From Escherichia coli (GTDB taxonomy: Bacteria > Pseudomonadota > Gammaproteobacteria > Enterobacterales > Enterobacteriaceae), in the NCBI RefSeq assembly GCF_024223415.1, contig NZ_CP100500.1: a stretch of 64,000 nt of DNA; one strand, 5' to 3'. Below are positions 35,920-42,449 of the stretch, piece after piece. The notes beneath the pieces are model-generated. The model made no database searches, was not told where the DNA came from, and saw only the letters and a list, made by a program, of their open reading frames with translations. The position numbers and the translations under genes were made by a program. The first letter of the stretch is position 1. Each line of letters begins with the position of its first letter.

Positions 35920-36678
35920 TCAGAAAAGAGAAGATTGCTGTGGAATAGCCGGAACTGCTCCGATCTCTGGAAGCGTTTTACGTAAGTCTTCCCACAGGGT
36001 ATGTACCAGTTCCGGTGCCTGGGCAATGTCTGGCGTATGTAAAAAAAGATAAGGCGTAGTGGTCTGATGCCACTGCGCTAATTTCTGTAACCAGACCTGA
36101 AATAATTCCCGGTTTTGCGTCATATCATCACTACCGATAAAACGGATCAGCGGATTTGTCGCCGTCAGTACAGCATGTACCGGAACTTTAGGTTTTTTTC
36201 GTTGAGCGTCGCGAATAGCTTCACTGTGTGGACGTGCTGCATGAACCGGGCGGCTGTCTAAAATCACCCGATTAACGCCGCGCTGATGTAAACCGCGATT
36301 AAGCGTTTGTTCCTCTTCCCCTTTGGCGAAAAACTGTGGATGGCGGACTTCCACACCATAATTAAATTCGCCAGGGAGAGAATCGAGAAAATGCCAAAGC
36401 GCAGGCAGCTCCCGTGGGCCGAATGTGGCAGGCAGTTGCAGCCAGTATTGCCCAATGCGCGGAGCCAACGGTGACATGCGGGTCAAAAATTCAGTCACTA
36501 AATCATCGCAATGTCGTAATGCTGCCTGATGCGAAATGGTCGCCGGAAACTTAAAACAGAAGCGGAAGTCATCTGTGGTCTGTTCACGCCAGCGCAGGAC
36601 AACCTCGGGTTTCGGCAGGGCGTAAAGCGTGGTGTTGCCCTCCACGCAGTTAACATGACGGGTATTGAAGGCTAACAC
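35920..36678 (-). CDS. yecE: YecE (DUF72) with 5' end altered by prophage insertion
   Basis: Matches YecE from ...NCVEGNTTLYALPKPEVVLRWREQ onward; N-terminus begins at a GTG overlapping the integrase stop; a decayed, stop-interrupted partial copy of the yecE 5' sequence lies upstream. Confidence 0.7.
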   Translation of the reverse strand: MLAFNTRHVNCVEGNTTLYALPKPEVVLRWREQTTDDFRFCFKFPATISHQAALRHCDDLVTEFLTRMSPLAPRIGQYWLQLPATFGPRELPALWHFLDSLPGEFNYGVEVRHPQFFAKGEEEQTLNRGLHQRGVNRVILDSRPVHAARPHSEAIRDAQRKKPKVPVHAVLTATNPLIRFIGSDDMTQNRELFQVWLQKLAQWHQTTTPYLFLHTPDIAQAPELVHTLWEDLRKTLPEIGAVPAIPQQSSLF

Positions 36679-37985
36679 ACTGATTTTAATAAGTTTCTTG
36701 TGTCACTTTGGTGACCATGGGACATCATTGGGACATAATCTGCCAGCTTCTGATTCAGCATTGCGATCTGTTCTGCATTACTGTCAGTCATCCATGCTCC
36801 GTATACATTGAACACCATCTGGGCACTTGCATGGCCCATCTGGCTGGCAATGAAGCTTGGGTTTGCTCCGGCAGATAATGACCAGCACGCATAAGTGTGT
36901 CGTGACTGGTATGCTTTCCGGTGCCTGATGCCCGCACGCTTAATGGCTGTTTCCCATGAGTCGCCAATAGAATCTACCTTGTAGATAAAACCGACCTGTT
37001 TGCTTTTTCTAACCACCTGGGGGTTAAATACGAAAGTACATTCATGGTTCACTGTACGTCCATATTCACGTAGTTGAACCTTGATGTGGTGCTGCTTACC
37101 CAGTCTTGTCATTTCAGCCTGATTTTTCAGGACACTGATAGCGGGCTGGATAAGATGCACAACCCTGTTTGTACTTGCTTCAGTTTTAGGTAGAGTGAAC
37201 TCACCGAGTTTCGTATAATTGCGCCTGATAGTAATTGTTCCTGCTTTCAGATCGATATCTTCCCAGGCCAGGGAGACCAGTTCACCATGACGCATTCCTG
37301 TGTACACAGCCAATGACCACAGGTTTTTCGTCTGCTGATGTCGGCAAGCATCTATCAGGCGAATAAATTCGTCACGAGTTAGCGGATCTGGCTCTGCCCT
37401 GGCTCTTTTAAGAGGCTTAATTCCCTGGAAGGGATTTGCTTCTAAGTAACCGTGATCTGCAGCAAACTGAAACATTCCAGCGATTGTCGTCATGTAATAA
37501 TTTACAGTAACGACGCTCCGTCCTTTTGCTGCTGCTTTGTTTTTCGTTGAATTCTGGTACCCGGTCAGCAAATCTTTCCTGATATACAGCAATTCCTCTT
37601 TAGTTACCGATGACACCAGTCTGCTGCCTCCAATTTTCGGAACCATCGTTCTTGCAACGGATTCATAGCGATTGAATGCATTTGCAGAGATCTCCATTCG
37701 TTTCAGATCCAGCCACTTTTCTTCAAGTTCCTTCACCGTAATTTCTTTTTTACTTACCCCAAAAGCCTGAAGGTTAGGGGAGTCAGGGAACTGTGCAGCA
37801 TAATCAAAGCTTCCTGTGCGGATGGCAAAACATACCGATGTCCGCAGTTCCCCGGCGATCTTCCTGTTCTTGGCAGTGTCAGGGACACCAAGATTTTCCC
37901 TGACACGTTTACCTTTAAAATTAAACCAGATGCGTAATGTGCCGCCGTGGTTTTCGACGCCTGTTGGATATTTGACTTTATCCAT
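36672..37985 (-). CDS. Phage tyrosine integrase
   Basis: 437 aa with tyrosine-recombinase C-terminal region (HASAQMVFNVYGAWM); stop adjoins yecE junction. Confidence 0.9.
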   Translation of the reverse strand: MDKVKYPTGVENHGGTLRIWFNFKGKRVRENLGVPDTAKNRKIAGELRTSVCFAIRTGSFDYAAQFPDSPNLQAFGVSKKEITVKELEEKWLDLKRMEISANAFNRYESVARTMVPKIGGSRLVSSVTKEELLYIRKDLLTGYQNSTKNKAAAKGRSVVTVNYYMTTIAGMFQFAADHGYLEANPFQGIKPLKRARAEPDPLTRDEFIRLIDACRHQQTKNLWSLAVYTGMRHGELVSLAWEDIDLKAGTITIRRNYTKLGEFTLPKTEASTNRVVHLIQPAISVLKNQAEMTRLGKQHHIKVQLREYGRTVNHECTFVFNPQVVRKSKQVGFIYKVDSIGDSWETAIKRAGIRHRKAYQSRHTYACWSLSAGANPSFIASQMGHASAQMVFNVYGAWMTDSNAEQIAMLNQKLADYVPMMSHGHQSDTRNLLKSVC

Positions 37986-38040
37986 TGATACCTCCAGACG
38001 CCCAAGAGCGATACGAGCTTACATACTTCATGGCATTAAA

Positions 38041-38277
38041 TCACCCAGGTTGTTTGTTTTTCATTGAAGCGACCCAGGCATCTATTGCTTTTCTGTTATA
38101 CATACATTCACTGGAAGGCTTTGGATTACCGTCTGGTGATACGTGAATATACTCTCTTCCAACCATCCAGCATTCTTTCCGGGCCCGAAGAATTGTGCCT
38201 GGTTTGAGCCCGGTAATTGCGATTAGAACGCTTTCACAAACCCATTCATTGGGAGCCAGTTGAATCACATTGCCCAT
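38041..38277 (-). CDS. Putative excisionase
   Basis: 78-aa ORF immediately upstream of int on the same strand. Confidence 0.55.
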   Translation of the reverse strand: MGNVIQLAPNEWVCESVLIAITGLKPGTILRARKECWMVGREYIHVSPDGNPKPSSECMYNRKAIDAWVASMKNKQPG

Positions 38278-38285
38278 GCATTACC

Positions 38286-38432
38286 TCACACAACACTCAG
38301 CCCACGGCAGTGGCACCACACTTCAAACATTCGTTTCACAATTTCACGACAGTAGAAACCGTCAACATCTCGTGTCAGGTCATAGCGATTGCCGTAACGC
38401 TGGTGGACCCATTGTTCAAATGCTTTATTCAT
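38286..38432 (-). CDS. Hypothetical small phage protein (48 aa)
   Basis: Hand-translated: MNKAFEQWVHQRYGNRYDLTRDVDGFYCREIVKRMFEVWCHCRGLSVV; below ORF-track cutoff. Confidence 0.35.
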   Translation of the reverse strand: MNKAFEQWVHQRYGNRYDLTRDVDGFYCREIVKRMFEVWCHCRGLSVV

Positions 38433-38435
38433 TCT

Positions 38436-38678
38436 TTACTTCCTTTTCATGGCCCGTAATTTTTTCAGATGAGTTTCCTGTTCTGTTTCTGCCAGAATTT
38501 GTCGGTATTCCTGATGATCGAGCCGTTCAAACGTTTCATTAAAATCGTTTATTTTTACCGACTGTGTTCGCCCATCCATTCTTCTGTACAACACGGTGTT
38601 ATTTATGCAGCGAATAATTTTTACCGGGTAACCGGCACTGTCGGTATACAGTTGTCCCTGATTAATCAAAGCGAACAT
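38436..38678 (-). CDS. Hypothetical phage protein (about 80 aa from internal ATG)
   Basis: MFALINQGQLYTDSAGYPVKIIRCINN...; start uncertain (track ORF extends to 38801). Confidence 0.4.
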   Translation of the reverse strand: MFALINQGQLYTDSAGYPVKIIRCINNTVLYRRMDGRTQSVKINDFNETFERLDHQEYRQILAETEQETHLKKLRAMKRK

Positions 38679-38709
38679 TTTTTCTCCTGCTCTCTGAATA
38701 GTGAGAACT

Positions 38710-39075
38710 TCAGAGTCGTATGTTTGTAGCGGGTTCAATGCTGATGATTTCTGCTGAGATAAGCATCCCGGCCAGCCAGAGCTCTCCGGACAGGTTTTCA
38801 TCCTTGCATTCCAGTCCGCCGATATTAATGGTGGCTATGATATCGCGCTTATCCTCGACTTCTTCATAAGGCAGCGTTGCGTACAGGCTTTCAATAGCGC
38901 AACTGATAACATCCAGTCCGGTCAGATTGCCGCCGACAGTGACTTCGAATGTTTCGCGGTATTCCCATAGCCCGAAAGTTAATCGAACGGTTTGTTTTGC
39001 CATGCGCCCGCATGACGTCAGATTCGGGTCATAGTTCATTATTTGCGGTTGAGTATTCTGGGCGTTCATCTGCAT
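38710..39075 (-). CDS. Hypothetical phage protein (121 aa)
   Basis: MQMNAQNTQPQIMNYDPNLTSCGRMAKQTVRLTFGLWEY...; follows SPFH gene in the same operon. Confidence 0.45.
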   Translation of the reverse strand: MQMNAQNTQPQIMNYDPNLTSCGRMAKQTVRLTFGLWEYRETFEVTVGGNLTGLDVISCAIESLYATLPYEEVEDKRDIIATINIGGLECKDENLSGELWLAGMLISAEIISIEPATNIRL

Positions 39076-39109
39076 TTCCCTTAGCCCGGCGGCCTGCCGG
39101 GCGTATAAG

Positions 39110-39937
39110 TTATTTAACCTGGATAAATGGTGTATTAGCACCGCTGGTCATGTATTGCGGCAGTGTGCCGTTCCATTTATTGATGGCTTCCAGCTCCATA
39201 ACGCCGGGGTTCTGACGCAGAGCTTCACCGCGTAAACGAATAGCATCAGCTTCGGCCTGGGCTTTTGTGCGAATCGCATCAGCCTGTCCGGCAGCTTCTG
39301 CGCGCAACATATTGGCTTCCGCTTCGCGCTGTTTTACTTCCTGCTCGCGCTGCAGTGTTTTCTGGTTCGCCGTGACTTTGGCATTAATGCTGTCGATAAC
39401 TGTTGGCGGGTACTCCGGCTTACCCACATATGAGAGGCTCATTACCTGAATACCGATAGGTGTCATCTCTGCCTGAATGTCTTTAAGAGCTTCATCCAGC
39501 AGCTCAGACTTGCCGCCGTCGATAAATTTGTCAGTGGTCATTTTGCTGGCCAGTCGGTTGAGTGCGTCGGCGATCTTCTGGCGCAGGTCAGTGTCGGTAA
39601 TGTCATCCACGCCTTTGCGGTAGGTCTGAAACACCGTGGTAACTTTGGATGGATCAACTTTGTAGGCCACGCCAATGTGATAGCCGATGGTTGTACCGTC
39701 ACTCATCTGGAAACTGAACGGTTCATCGTAGGTCTTCATTTGTTTGAAGGTGGGGAAGATATAAACTTCAGTATTCCAGCCAGTCCAGTAGCGACCAACA
39801 CCGACCACCTCACCGACGCCTTTGTCGTCGCCCAGTTTATTTACCTTGATGCCAACATTACCTGGTTCAACGCGATCGCAACCGACAAGGCCAATAGTCG
39901 GCAGAACAATGGCTAAAGCAAAAATAATTTTTTTCAT
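39110..39937 (-). CDS. SPFH/band-7 (HflK/C, stomatin, prohibitin-like) domain lipoprotein
   Basis: 275 aa; signal peptide with lipobox LVGC; SPFH-type core followed by a long Ala/Glu/Arg/Gln-rich segment of the kind seen in flotillin-like proteins. Confidence 0.7.
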   Translation of the reverse strand: MKKIIFALAIVLPTIGLVGCDRVEPGNVGIKVNKLGDDKGVGEVVGVGRYWTGWNTEVYIFPTFKQMKTYDEPFSFQMSDGTTIGYHIGVAYKVDPSKVTTVFQTYRKGVDDITDTDLRQKIADALNRLASKMTTDKFIDGGKSELLDEALKDIQAEMTPIGIQVMSLSYVGKPEYPPTVIDSINAKVTANQKTLQREQEVKQREAEANMLRAEAAGQADAIRTKAQAEADAIRLRGEALRQNPGVMELEAINKWNGTLPQYMTSGANTPFIQVK

Positions 39938-40122
39938 CTTTTATCCTTAGTGAAAGAAAGACCCTTGTAAATGGCATAAATGCAGGGCGGGGTCAGAAAC
40001 GCCAGTGCAAAGCCAGAAATAACTGCTATCGTATCCTTCATGGATATAAGGAACGGAACGAGTAATCCGTAAATGCATGCGATAATTGCCAGTAAAATTA
40101 CTATTGTGAAATACAGTCTCAT
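39934..40122 (-). CDS. Small two-TM membrane protein translationally coupled to SPFH gene
   Basis: 62 aa, two hydrophobic helices; stop overlaps SPFH start codon in an ATGA arrangement. Confidence 0.5.
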   Translation of the reverse strand: MRLYFTIVILLAIIACIYGLLVPFLISMKDTIAVISGFALAFLTPPCIYAIYKGLSFTKDKR

Positions 40123-40298
40123 TGGTCTGTGGTATCCCGATATTTTTAACCGACTGACAGCGCAATAAAGAGAATAATGATTTCTGTTAGTGTCAGCACT
40201 GTGGCAAGGATTAAAATCAGTTTTACTCTGTTTAATTCACGGTTGCTTTTCATATAAACGGTTAGTAAAAAACGGAAGAATTATTTTCTTCTTAATAT

Positions 40299-40880
40299 TT
40301 AATGTGTCACTGGCGCTTCTGGCATACCATGAGTATTCAGGTCGTGAATCATTTCATCCAGAAGGAGTTCAAGCCCTTCGCGCCCCATAGCAGAGAGAAT
40401 GAAACCATTATCAGGATCTGCGATGAGCATTTTTTGATAGAGAAACAGAACTCGCCCCATGCCTTCAGTTTCGCCATATTTTTCAATAAATCCCCATTCG
40501 ACATGGTTTTGCAGGGCAATGCGAAGTGGTCCTGGGTATATACTTATGCAACCATGTTTCCCCTTGTAAATAACTGCGCGATCTGTCGTCCCGTTATCGT
40601 TAGGGATATCAATAGTGCCGTTCTTGTCTTCCTCTTCACTGATAAACTTCATCACATACAGCCAGCGCCACTGAGCAACCTTCAGATCGACTGAAAATCT
40701 TCCCAGCAATCCGGCATCATCAGCTTCGGCAAGACATTGCATGATTCTTAAACCGTGCCAGTATGGATTATCGAATTCGCCATCATTAAGCCGCTGTACG
40801 GCCTGAATATAATCAATGGTTGTATTACCAATTTTTATGCCATGTGGCGTTACTTCTGGTCGGAACTCTGAATGATTCAT
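40299..40880 (-). CDS. Hypothetical phage protein (about 193 aa from ATG at 40880)
   Basis: MNHSEFRPEVTPHGIKIGNTTIDYIQ...; no recognisable motif; ATGA overlap with upstream 67-aa ORF. Confidence 0.5.
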   Translation of the reverse strand: MNHSEFRPEVTPHGIKIGNTTIDYIQAVQRLNDGEFDNPYWHGLRIMQCLAEADDAGLLGRFSVDLKVAQWRWLYVMKFISEEEDKNGTIDIPNDNGTTDRAVIYKGKHGCISIYPGPLRIALQNHVEWGFIEKYGETEGMGRVLFLYQKMLIADPDNGFILSAMGREGLELLLDEMIHDLNTHGMPEAPVTH

Positions 40881-41080
40881 AATATTTGCTCCTTTGCTGG
40901 TGGAATAATCGTGTAGCCAGCTCTTTTTGCCATCCACAGAAATGTATCCATGCAGCCAACGAATTCATTATCCAGCAGATGTTTTGAGTAAATTACTTCA
41001 CCATTTTCAATGGTTAGCAACACTCTTACTTTTTTATGTGTTATGTTTTGTTGTTTTTCTTCCATTGACTTATCTCCCAT
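40877..41080 (-). CDS. Hypothetical small protein (67 aa) coupled to downstream gene
   Basis: MGDKSMEEKQQNITHKKVRVLLTIENGEVIY...; 4-nt overlap with next gene. Confidence 0.45.
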   Translation of the reverse strand: MGDKSMEEKQQNITHKKVRVLLTIENGEVIYSKHLLDNEFVGCMDTFLWMAKRAGYTIIPPAKEQIL

Positions 41081-41261
41081 ATGCTTTGCGCAAATACAGG
41101 TTGGCTATATGAAGATAAGAATCTCCATGTTGTGCAATGAGGCAGGCAGTTTTATACGATGCCTTATGTTTCAGGAAAGTCATAACATAATCTCCTGCGA
41201 ATAAAGGTTGCAACAATCCCCGGCGATAAAACCGTAATAAACATTCAGGGAATATTTATTG

Positions 41262-41627
41262 TTATTGCGCTAATTCTTTTTCGGCAGCAGATTTTGCATA
41301 TTCACATGCAAAATTCAGAATTTCGCTGCCAAGTGTTTTTGTTTCGTGATTACTGGACATATGTAATACCTGTGTTGCATGCAATAAATGATAAACATTT
41401 ACCGCAAATGAGTCCGGCTCCAGACAAATGCCTTCATAATCATCTTGTTGTGAGGTTGTTTCTGTCATTGCTCCTGAAGTGCATGCGAGCCTGTTTTTGA
41501 CAATTCTCTTTCCTCTAATCACTATATCGGCAACATCTATTGCCTTTACAACCTCCGGGAGAAGTTCCGGGTTTGTATAATCAAAGTCATCAACATGGAG
41601 AACAGTTATGTTTTCGAACTTTTTCAT
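41262..41627 (-). CDS. Hypothetical acidic phage protein (121 aa)
   Basis: MKKFENITVLHVDDFDYTNPELLPEVV...; second gene downstream of cI. Confidence 0.5.
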   Translation of the reverse strand: MKKFENITVLHVDDFDYTNPELLPEVVKAIDVADIVIRGKRIVKNRLACTSGAMTETTSQQDDYEGICLEPDSFAVNVYHLLHATQVLHMSSNHETKTLGSEILNFACEYAKSAAEKELAQ

Positions 41628-41755
41628 GGCTTCCTCAGCTGACTTATATGTTCTGCTATATAGCGAGTCTCAGAAGTGTTTTCATATTGAGACTGTTTCC
41701 GCAATGATTGATAAAAATGTTCGCATGTACCTTGAGGGGCGAAGCGGCGATTATG

Positions 41756-42304
41756 TCACCATTGGTATTGGTTCTTCCGTAGAAGAGCTTCGCGAGATAA
41801 GGAGCAAACTTGTTGAGATGCGTCATGGTGTTGCTGCTCCTCACTTTTTGGTTGCTCCGGAGGAGTAACCTCGCCAGTTAACAGCCACATCGGATCGCAG
41901 CCAAGAATATTTGCCAGTGGGGTAAGCATACTGATAGTTGGTTCATACTCTCCGCTCTCCCACTGGATGATGATTTCTTCATCGAGATCGAGCAGCCTGG
42001 CGAGTTCGGCGGTTGTTAAGCCGCAGGCTTCGCGTTGGGTGCGAAGGTTAACCAGCCAGCTTTTAGGGAAGGATTGTTTTTGTTGTGCAGGAGAAGCCGT
42101 AGATAGAGCATATTCATGGATAAATTCCATTACCTCAATGCCCAGTTCCTTTGAGCGAGCACAATCCAGAAGATGGAATGTGCGTACAGCACTTAGCAAA
42201 TTTGCAATATTTAATGCAAAGGAATCAAGTTCTAAGCCTTCAAGCGTAACACAGCCGCAGTTGATAAAATTAGTTGTTTCTGGAGTTGCTTTTAGTGTCT
42301 TCAT
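41756..42304 (-). CDS. Protein with unknown N-terminal domain and C-terminal XRE-type HTH
   Basis: HTH-like segment LRTQREACGLTTAELARLLDLDEEIIIQWESGEYEPTISMLTPLANILG in C-terminal half; first gene downstream of cI. Confidence 0.55.
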   Translation of the reverse strand: MKTLKATPETTNFINCGCVTLEGLELDSFALNIANLLSAVRTFHLLDCARSKELGIEVMEFIHEYALSTASPAQQKQSFPKSWLVNLRTQREACGLTTAELARLLDLDEEIIIQWESGEYEPTISMLTPLANILGCDPMWLLTGEVTPPEQPKSEEQQHHDASQQVCSLSREALLRKNQYQW

Positions 42305-42449
42305 ATACCCACCAACAATTTTAAATTGAATTTAATCAAGTTATAATTGATGGTGCGATATTATGCTTTGAGAAATAGGCTGTCAAGAAAAAATTGATAC
42401 CGTGTGTTTTAGGCAGAAAAAAACGGGCAAAGCCCGTTAAAATCAAAGA

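Follow-up and report, generated by a model that had tools for sequence, protein, structure and literature searches.

The segment between xis and the cI-type repressor gene of a prophage inserted at yecE in Escherichia coli (positions 38286-42304 of a 64,000-nucleotide stretch of contig NZ_CP100500.1, assembly GCF_024223415.1; the whole stretch is hereafter the window) is an ordinary, already sequenced and uncharacterised early-left operon of the phiP27 type. It does not form a coherent system, nor is it recognisable as a defence locus. With a probability that we put at roughly 0.7, it is a cI-repressed, pL-type operon of a phiP27-like mosaic lambdoid prophage that stays silent in lysogens. Its genes form a mosaic of independently assorting units rather than one co-inherited system, and the only real multi-gene unit among them is a pair encoding a hairpin protein with two transmembrane (TM) helices and an SPFH/Band-7 lipoprotein. 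An earlier note, made from the letters of the window, had regarded the segment as a candidate novel accessory or defence system, suggested to have been acquired separately, containing three sub-modules and likely to be expressed in lysogens by virtue of its place downstream of the repressor. That note is right that the genes are accessory and lack a functional characterisation.

The argument for control by cI starts from the signals that separate the repressor gene from the minus-strand open reading frames (ORFs) occupying the segment. The cI-type gene (42450-43145, minus strand), whose product contains a Peptidase_S24 domain, is followed 11 nt past its stop codon by an intrinsic terminator (42422-42438, minus strand) with a 7-bp GC-rich stem and then seven U residues; its folding energy is -11.2 kcal/mol (z -3.1), and none of 200 shuffled sequences folds as well. 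Transcription of cI ends at this strong terminator, apart from the operon, and the segment is not co-transcribed with the repressor gene, unlike a cassette of the rexAB type, from which it differs precisely by the terminator at 42438-42422. A pL-like sigma-70 promoter, TTGACA-17-TAATAT, lies 36 bp beyond the terminator (42358-42386, minus strand; 10 of 12 positions matched) and is the best minus-strand promoter match in the interval 37900-43700. Promoter-like matches in this interval do not exceed those in shuffled sequences, and the argument is therefore based on the position of the promoter and on the operator-like sites around it. Three such 17-bp sites, of the form ATCAA-N7-TTGAT, occur at 42314-42398, respectively covering the -35 element, the stretch just past the -10 element and the leader ahead of the first start codon, and three more at 43169-43264, between cI and the divergent cro-like gene. 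Six of the 48 matches in the window (at most two mismatches) fall within about 180 bp, and the sole perfect one is at 42335-42351. No minus-strand terminator was predicted between 42300 and 38000, and xis and the integrase gene (36672-38277, minus strand) come last in this leftward transcription unit, in agreement with the annotation of phiP27. The expectation of lysogen expression from the place of the segment next to the repressor is thus not supported, given the cI terminator and a separate promoter embedded in operator-like repeats. In the model that we favour, cI would bind the putative 17-mer operators and keep the operon silent in the lysogen; upon loss of cI at induction, or upon infection, transcription from 42386-42358 would proceed leftward through the coupled genes to xis and int, and the products would act separately as non-essential early accessory factors, comprising regulators, probable binders of host factors and a membrane module.

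This arrangement parallels the lambda pL operon (N-cIII-kil-gam-bet-exo-xis-int) in its leftward orientation between repressor and xis/int, in having its own promoter, in the operator-like repeats common to the rightward control region, and in the predicted read-through to xis and int. It differs in that the segment begins with a gene for an XRE helix-turn-helix (HTH) protein, holds an embedded convergent gene on the plus strand, and lacks homologues of N, cIII, Kil, Gam and Red. Searches of PHROGs, NCBIfam and Pfam gave no match of any segment ORF to N, cIII, Kil, Gam, Exo/Bet (Red), Erf or RecT, which bears out the earlier observation that lambda-like N, cIII and recombination functions are missing here; an Rfam scan likewise found no RNA family within the segment. 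Several points weigh against a simple cI-controlled unit. Repression by cI is deduced from the clustering of a motif that was itself derived from this region; the independent part of the operator test is its recurrence at OR. A further promoter match (9 of 12 positions) at 40310-40283, upstream of the block made up of a 35-aa ORF and the two-TM and SPFH genes, makes weak internal promoters possible, and the two-TM/SPFH pair stands alone in P1-like plasmids. Finally, transcription of the embedded convergent gene, which encodes an 86-aa protein, would collide with that from pL.

The relationship to phiP27 (NC_003356 / AJ298298) is close. Over 90% of the segment there is 97.6% nucleotide identity to phiP27 L03-L10, the gene order and the yecE attachment site are shared, and the adjoining xis (38041-38277, minus strand) and integrase (36672-37985, minus strand) genes are respectively 100% and 97% identical to their phiP27 counterparts. 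A full-length match (98.8% identical) is present in E. coli A36, at least 80% of the segment is found in 72 complete E. coli genomes, with parts of it in 943 of 5,426, and in one IMG/VR contig all 12 of the 12 proteins tested are 100% identical. Every ORF matches a PHROG family, excepting a 35-aa candidate that has no family match, and DUF4222, DUF5406, SPFH and HTH had already been named by the Prokaryotic Genome Annotation Pipeline (PGAP). Hence, neither the DNA nor its protein families can be called novel. The differences from phiP27 include the first gene, where a 138-aa L10 takes the place of the 182-aa HTH protein of the window, and the remainder of the prophage, which is itself mosaic and stems from other lambdoid lineages: its immunity and replication region resembles that of Stx2 phages of the yecE type, and its late genes are lambda-like. 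The yecE Stx2 phages also share positions 17-2954 of the query segment at about 87% identity.

In the earlier note, its composition had suggested that the segment was acquired separately. Its mean GC content of 44.3% is lower than the 50.4% of the chromosomal part of the window (positions 1-36,600, with cmoA, yecN and yecE, after which the prophage starts), and lies below all 163 host windows of equal size. The AT-richness reported in the earlier note is thus real on average and patchy in detail: the GC content is 50.0% in the SPFH gene, 49.2% in the DUF5406 gene, 38.5% in the gene for an acidic 121-aa protein and 35.8% in the gene for a 67-aa protein. A single acquisition is not supported by an assortment survey anchored on the SPFH gene and covering 80 viral loci in which the SPFH proteins are 97-100% identical. 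Among these, the gene for a 193-aa protein is missing in about 25, the DUF5406 gene in about 15 and the pair of 48-aa and DUF4222 genes in about 12; the HTH gene is often replaced, and the gene for the acidic 121-aa protein is missing in many. Three unrelated integrase types occur and neighbour identities range over 43-100%, so genes come and go independently. The two-TM gene is the exception, being present in every surveyed locus whose contig extends there (84-100% identity). In one class of loci the two-TM gene has a mosaic junction at its ribosome-binding site, just before the start codon; the two-TM/SPFH cassette therefore lacks a promoter of its own, and the idea of a promoter travelling with it was rejected on these grounds.

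The three sub-modules that had been proposed on the strength of overlapping stop and start codons fare in the same way. Such overlaps (ATGA) exist in two pairs only, namely the 67-aa and 193-aa genes and the two-TM and SPFH genes; the HTH gene is separated from the acidic 121-aa gene by 128 bp, and the SPFH gene from the DUF5406 gene by 34 bp. As functional units, only the two-TM and SPFH genes are constant across the 80 loci. A sub-module of the 67-aa and 193-aa genes was rejected, since distant homologues of the 193-aa protein, from a yecE prophage of Citrobacter and a P4-like element, are preceded by unrelated proteins of 59 or 140 aa. Joining SPFH to DUF5406 was rejected as well, given the absence of DUF5406 from about 15 SPFH loci and the finding of its homologues in prophages of Stutzerimonas and Serratia, where their early-left operons have no SPFH gene. 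Nearly all neighbouring genes in these distant loci overlap by 4 bp; the overlap therefore reflects generic translational coupling and is no signature of a module. A P4-like element (with AlpA, AntA and a D5-type primase) lies at 1495-4642 of an ENA metagenome contig (L093), and its early operon holds both a DUF4222 gene and a homologue of the 193-aa family; accessory families of the 'lambdoid pL' kind are therefore common to satellite-type elements, as is also seen with RgdR in Sakai Sp7.

The conserved pair consists of a 62-aa two-TM hairpin protein (39934-40122, minus strand; phrog_1130, 2.5e-23) and a 275-aa SPFH/Band-7 lipoprotein (39110-39937, minus strand; phrog_200, 2.7e-114). The latter has a signal peptide, a lipobox LVGC with Asp at +2, a Band_7 domain (PF01145) spanning residues 22-208 (3e-31) and a C-terminal coiled coil, and its nearest solved relative by sequence in the PDB is HflK (E 4e-4). 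HflK and HflC share with it the SPFH/Band-7 domain followed by a coiled coil, and the SPFH domain is predicted to lie, like theirs, at the inner membrane facing the periplasm; they differ in possessing an N-terminal TM helix instead of a lipid anchor, and in forming a K/C heteromer, whereas here a single SPFH gene is accompanied by a two-TM partner. Against the NCBIfam models of HflK and HflC the protein scores 23-26 bits, far below the cut-offs of 134-159. Neither does the pair represent an NfeD-SPFH operon: the 62-aa partner consists essentially of two TM helices and has no NCBIfam match.

The closest parallel is gp19/gp20 of phage N4, which is the same two-gene unit with overlapping frames and a homologous two-TM partner retaining the conserved loop motif. 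The SPFH protein is 62% identical to N4 gp20 over residues 2-275, and gp19, a membrane protein of 68 aa, shares 37% identity over 38 aa with the two-TM protein (E 1e-6). The loop motif of the two-TM family, YGxLxPxLISxxS with an invariant Pro, is seen in N4, SSU5, PVP-SE1, P88, P1-like elements and phi1026b, and is kept in 7 phages. N4 differs in being virulent and in having Tyr rather than Asp at the +2 position of gp20. Relatives of the SPFH protein were found in 383 phage records, including the P2-like P88, P1-like elements, the SSU5/RCS47 phage-plasmids, phi1026b, N4 and N4-like phages, PVP-SE1 and rV5-like phages, TL and LUZ24-like phages, phiCbK, a crAss-like phage, Lak phages and jumbo phages; among the taxa represented are Schitoviridae, Vequintavirinae, Bruynoghevirus, Ounavirinae and Crassvirales. 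In a P1-like record (MH445380) the partner gene is unannotated: it encodes a 78-aa two-TM protein at 4275-4511 (minus strand), upstream of SPFH, and the pair stands alone in a variable region of the plasmid-prophage, between a DnaB-like helicase gene and a tRNA-like stretch. Many of the SPFH carriers are virulent, judged by taxon; the pair must therefore be of use to the phage that infects rather than to the lysogen in particular, and a role limited to lysogen protection is unlikely. This agrees with its place in P88 and N4, where it lies inside early or middle lytic operons; that of N4 we take to be the middle-gene region.

What the pair might do can be framed from its predicted architecture. 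After export and acylation, the lipoprotein would stay at the inner membrane, on its periplasmic face, through Asp at +2, and its C-terminal coiled coil would drive oligomerisation into a ring or cage of the HflK/C type that encloses the two-TM hairpin or sits next to it; such an assembly could then alter an inner-membrane process during lytic growth, with blocked entry of superinfecting DNA, sequestration of FtsH or stabilisation of the membrane until lysis as possible targets. Tentatively, we raise the possibility that the pair is an unrecognised and widespread phage membrane device, namely an early HflK/C-like inner-membrane cage that excludes superinfecting DNA or neutralises membrane-acting defences or FtsH. 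Two features of the lipoprotein signal make retention at the inner membrane uncertain: N4 gp20 carries Tyr at +2, and Arg at +3 of the present protein may weaken the Asp +2 signal. Literature searches for SPFH together with prophages, anti-phage activity or N4 returned no functional study of phage SPFH lipoproteins, and a 2026 paper states that the reason for their presence in phages is still unclear (PMC13239085).

A related possibility, which we regard as rather unlikely, is that the pair is a functional analogue of lambda cIII, forming a periplasmic cage that would capture or modulate FtsH, stabilise CII-like proteins or Xis, and thereby bias the choice between lysis and lysogeny or affect excision. 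Such a role would suit the location of the pair, which holds the position of cIII in the pL operon, and would also suit the nearest solved relative (HflK), the weak NCBIfam matches to HflC and HflK and the predicted periplasmic-face topology, which agrees with that of the SPFH domains in the HflK/C-FtsH cage (PDB 7vhp, 7wi3). The same NCBIfam scores are far under the cut-offs, however, and the family abounds in virulent phages, which make no lysogeny decision.

The proposal that the operon or its sub-modules are expressed in the lysogen and act there against phages, by defence, abortive infection or exclusion, was weighed against several of these results and appears unlikely. In its favour, the genes are accessory and mobile, and the two-TM protein is filed by PHROGs under 'moron, auxiliary metabolic gene and host takeover'. 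Pairs of membrane proteins and lipoproteins are also a classic form of superinfection exclusion, as in Imm/Sp of T4, Llp of T5 and Cor of phi80/N15, and the N4 pair adjoins gp18, which is annotated 'superinfection exclusion, similar to P22 gp17'. However, the genes assort independently, the terminator after cI and the operator-flanked promoter speak against expression in lysogens, and the SPFH pair occurs widely among virulent phages, for which there is no lysogen to protect, and in P88 and N4 forms part of early lytic operons. When the ORFs were compared with PADLOC-DB 2.0.0, only generic HTH matches (RmrA, capH, HTH_VI) were obtained for the HTH protein and cI, and zero families for the other ORFs, so that no non-HTH ORF has a match in this database, which dates from 2023 and precedes newer systems. 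The 86-aa and 35-aa ORFs yielded a marginal Cas11a match only (E 0.04), and nothing was detected past HTH, SPFH, DUF4222 and DUF5406 when the ORFs were scanned with PADLOC, NCBIfam and Pfam models. The identification as a defence system consequently has no counterpart in PADLOC-DB beyond the generic HTH matches.

Turning to the remaining genes of the early-left operon, the first encodes the 182-aa XRE HTH protein (41756-42304, minus strand; phrog_4836, 1.5e-77; Pfam HTH_3, 3.1e-10), in which an N-terminal domain precedes an XRE/Cro-C1 HTH at residues 87-141; its PDB matches are P22 C2 and proteins of the 434 type, and length variants of 150 and 153 aa occur. A type II toxin-antitoxin assignment for this protein was rejected, as its matches to HipB, MqsA and spr1629 are far below the cut-offs and its neighbours match no toxin family. 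The acidic 121-aa protein (41262-41627, minus strand; phrog_5451, 3.5e-83; pI 4.97) matches nothing in Pfam or the PDB; over its last 47 aa it is a paralogue of the HTH protein's N-domain (45% identity, E 4e-10). This similarity suggests that the two are a regulator and a partner with a common interaction domain, which probably modulate each other by heteromerisation. The start of the acidic protein is uncertain, a 68-aa form being annotated as well. Counting variable codon positions 1/2/3 across distinct homologous sequences (dozens for the main ORFs; variation figures below have the same form), we obtained 9/5/17 for its C-terminal 68 codons, a clear coding signal, and 13/7/11 for the N-terminal 53, where the signal is ambiguous.

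Towards the distal end of the operon, the 80-aa DUF4222 ORF (38436-38678, minus strand; Pfam PF13973, 8.6e-16) encodes a basic protein (pI 9.46). A longer, 121-aa reading of it is spurious, since stops interrupt the 5' extension in 5 of 23 homologous sequences, and PGAP likewise gives 80 aa. RgdR (ECs1581) of enterohaemorrhagic E. coli (EHEC) is a comparable small, basic prophage protein that contains DUF4222 (reviewed in PMC10877973), and the product may by its domain be a small basic regulator of the RgdR family. The two differ in that RgdR sits in a P4-like cryptic prophage, and their pairwise similarity is marginal (E 0.095). Homology to known recombination or regulatory proteins, named in the earlier note as evidence that would tell against its proposal, was thus found on the regulatory side, for DUF4222/RgdR and the XRE HTH protein, and not on the recombination side.

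These regulators also lie behind a further explanation, under which the region would serve lysogenic conversion or virulence modulation, the regulators rewiring host expression and the SPFH protein acting as a surface factor or one borne by outer membrane vesicles (OMVs). RgdR of the cryptic prophage activates type III secretion of the enterocyte-effacement locus (LEE) and represses motility (PMC3378721, PMC10877973), and an HflK/C-like SPFH protein from a Pasteurella multocida prophage is reported to be an OMV-secreted virulence factor (PMC9872710), which offers a possible analogy; the module is, moreover, frequent in Stx phages. The resemblance weakens on inspection of the sequence: the RGD motif of RgdR, needed for activation of type III secretion (PMC3378721), is absent from the DUF4222 protein of the window, where the aligned residues are QGQ, and the overall similarity is marginal, as noted. 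Predicted control by cI argues against expression in lysogens, and commensal and environmental strains carry these genes too. A conversion role therefore strikes us as improbable.

The other products are small and soluble. The 193-aa protein (40299-40880, minus strand) is of the alpha/beta type and belongs to a family confined to prophages of Enterobacterales, for which an exhaustive profile search yielded 132 representatives and disclosed essentially no informative fusions. The DUF5406 protein (38710-39075, minus strand; 121 aa, 119 aa in PGAP) is acidic and beta-rich. Both yield confident AlphaFold2 models and have no known fold relative. Alongside them are the 67-aa ORF (40877-41080, minus strand; 62 aa in PGAP; phrog_340, 3.8e-24) and a 48-aa ORF, the last before xis (38286-38432, minus strand; phrog_3871, 3.5e-35; variation 8/8/19). 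Single-sequence and profile searches of the PDB gave nothing credible for the 193-aa, DUF5406, acidic 121-aa, 67-aa and DUF4222 proteins. The small acidic soluble proteins (193 aa, DUF5406, 67 aa and 48 aa) most likely bind host factors.

Two further ORFs emerged that had been overlooked when the segment was described as about ten ORFs on one strand; those ORFs are real, but the 86-aa ORF lies on the plus strand (41608-41868). Located between the HTH and acidic 121-aa genes, it converges on the HTH gene, whose last 113 nt it overlaps; the HTH variants of 150 and 153 aa would shorten this overlap. It is preceded by a ribosome-binding site (GGAG-N7-ATG), shows variation of 6/1/12 with no stops, has been annotated on over 1,000 contigs and matches phrog_6104 over its full length (9.6e-50), and has no Pfam, NCBIfam or PADLOC family. 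The 35-aa ORF (MKSNRELNRVKLILILATVLTLTEIIILFIALSVG; 40146-40253, minus strand), in the gap between the 193-aa and two-TM genes, has an uninterrupted frame in 23 distinct homologous sequences (variation 10/4/10), has no family match, and accompanies the two-TM/SPFH block in phiP27- and Stx-type loci and not in others; it is possibly a gene for a single-TM peptide.

That the region is merely decaying, non-functional prophage filler might be supposed from the ambiguous start codons of two ORFs and from the truncated or frameshifted state of some homologues. The selection signatures largely refute this: an excess of third-position variation indicates purifying selection on the SPFH gene (49/29/202), the 193-aa ORF (57/35/110), residues 1-145 of the HTH protein (20/7/42) and DUF5406 (9/7/27), and the main ORFs have no internal stops across the homologous sequences. 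The confident folds of two proteins and the conservation of the SPFH pair from phages of E. coli to those of Burkholderia point the same way, and we consider decay very improbable.

Beyond the segment, several features of the window deserve record. Following cro are a gene with a KilA-N domain (43649-44494, plus strand) and a Lar-family restriction-alleviation gene (44491-44703), as named by PGAP in the near-identical A36 locus. Two Rfam matches above the gathering score, isrK (63.6 bits; 44775-44851, plus strand) and the C4 antisense RNA (84.3 bits; 44876-44963, plus strand), lie inside the 5' part of an ORF at 44700-45380, for which PGAP gives 'ash family' in a related genome; they suggest a switch of the P1/P7 c4-ant or Gifsy IsrK antirepressor type to the right of the immunity region. 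Farther along, a Q-like antiterminator gene (50365-50802, plus strand) is followed by a 335-aa ORF (50981-51988, minus strand; GC about 42%), which belongs to phrog_410, in the function-unknown category, and has no PADLOC match, and then by genes for tRNA-Met and tRNA-Lys (52686-52839). This interval (50365-52839) is the classic moron/Stx position and a likelier site for lysogen-expressed cargo than the pL operon. The host part of the window itself contains two low-GC stretches of about 1 kb, at 2001-3000 (38.4%) and 9001-10000 (37.3%).

The DNA described here has been public since phiP27 was sequenced and is common in E. coli, and two cautions for genome scans follow from it. A place just downstream of cI does not amount to expression in the lysogen where a terminator and an operator-flanked promoter intervene, and stop/start overlaps in phage early operons are no guide to where functional modules lie. 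Both fold orphans, the 193-aa and DUF5406 proteins, represent phage 'dark matter' of a typical kind and may bind host factors. The two-TM and SPFH genes, as a conserved two-gene unit shared by hundreds of phages whose lifestyles differ widely, offer a well-defined experimental target. If the tentative proposal of a membrane device is true, that device would be common to temperate phages (phiP27, P2-like, P1-/SSU5-like) and virulent ones (N4-, rV5- and LUZ24-like, phiCbK and crAss-like), and the rest of the operon would stay a string of unrelated accessory genes.

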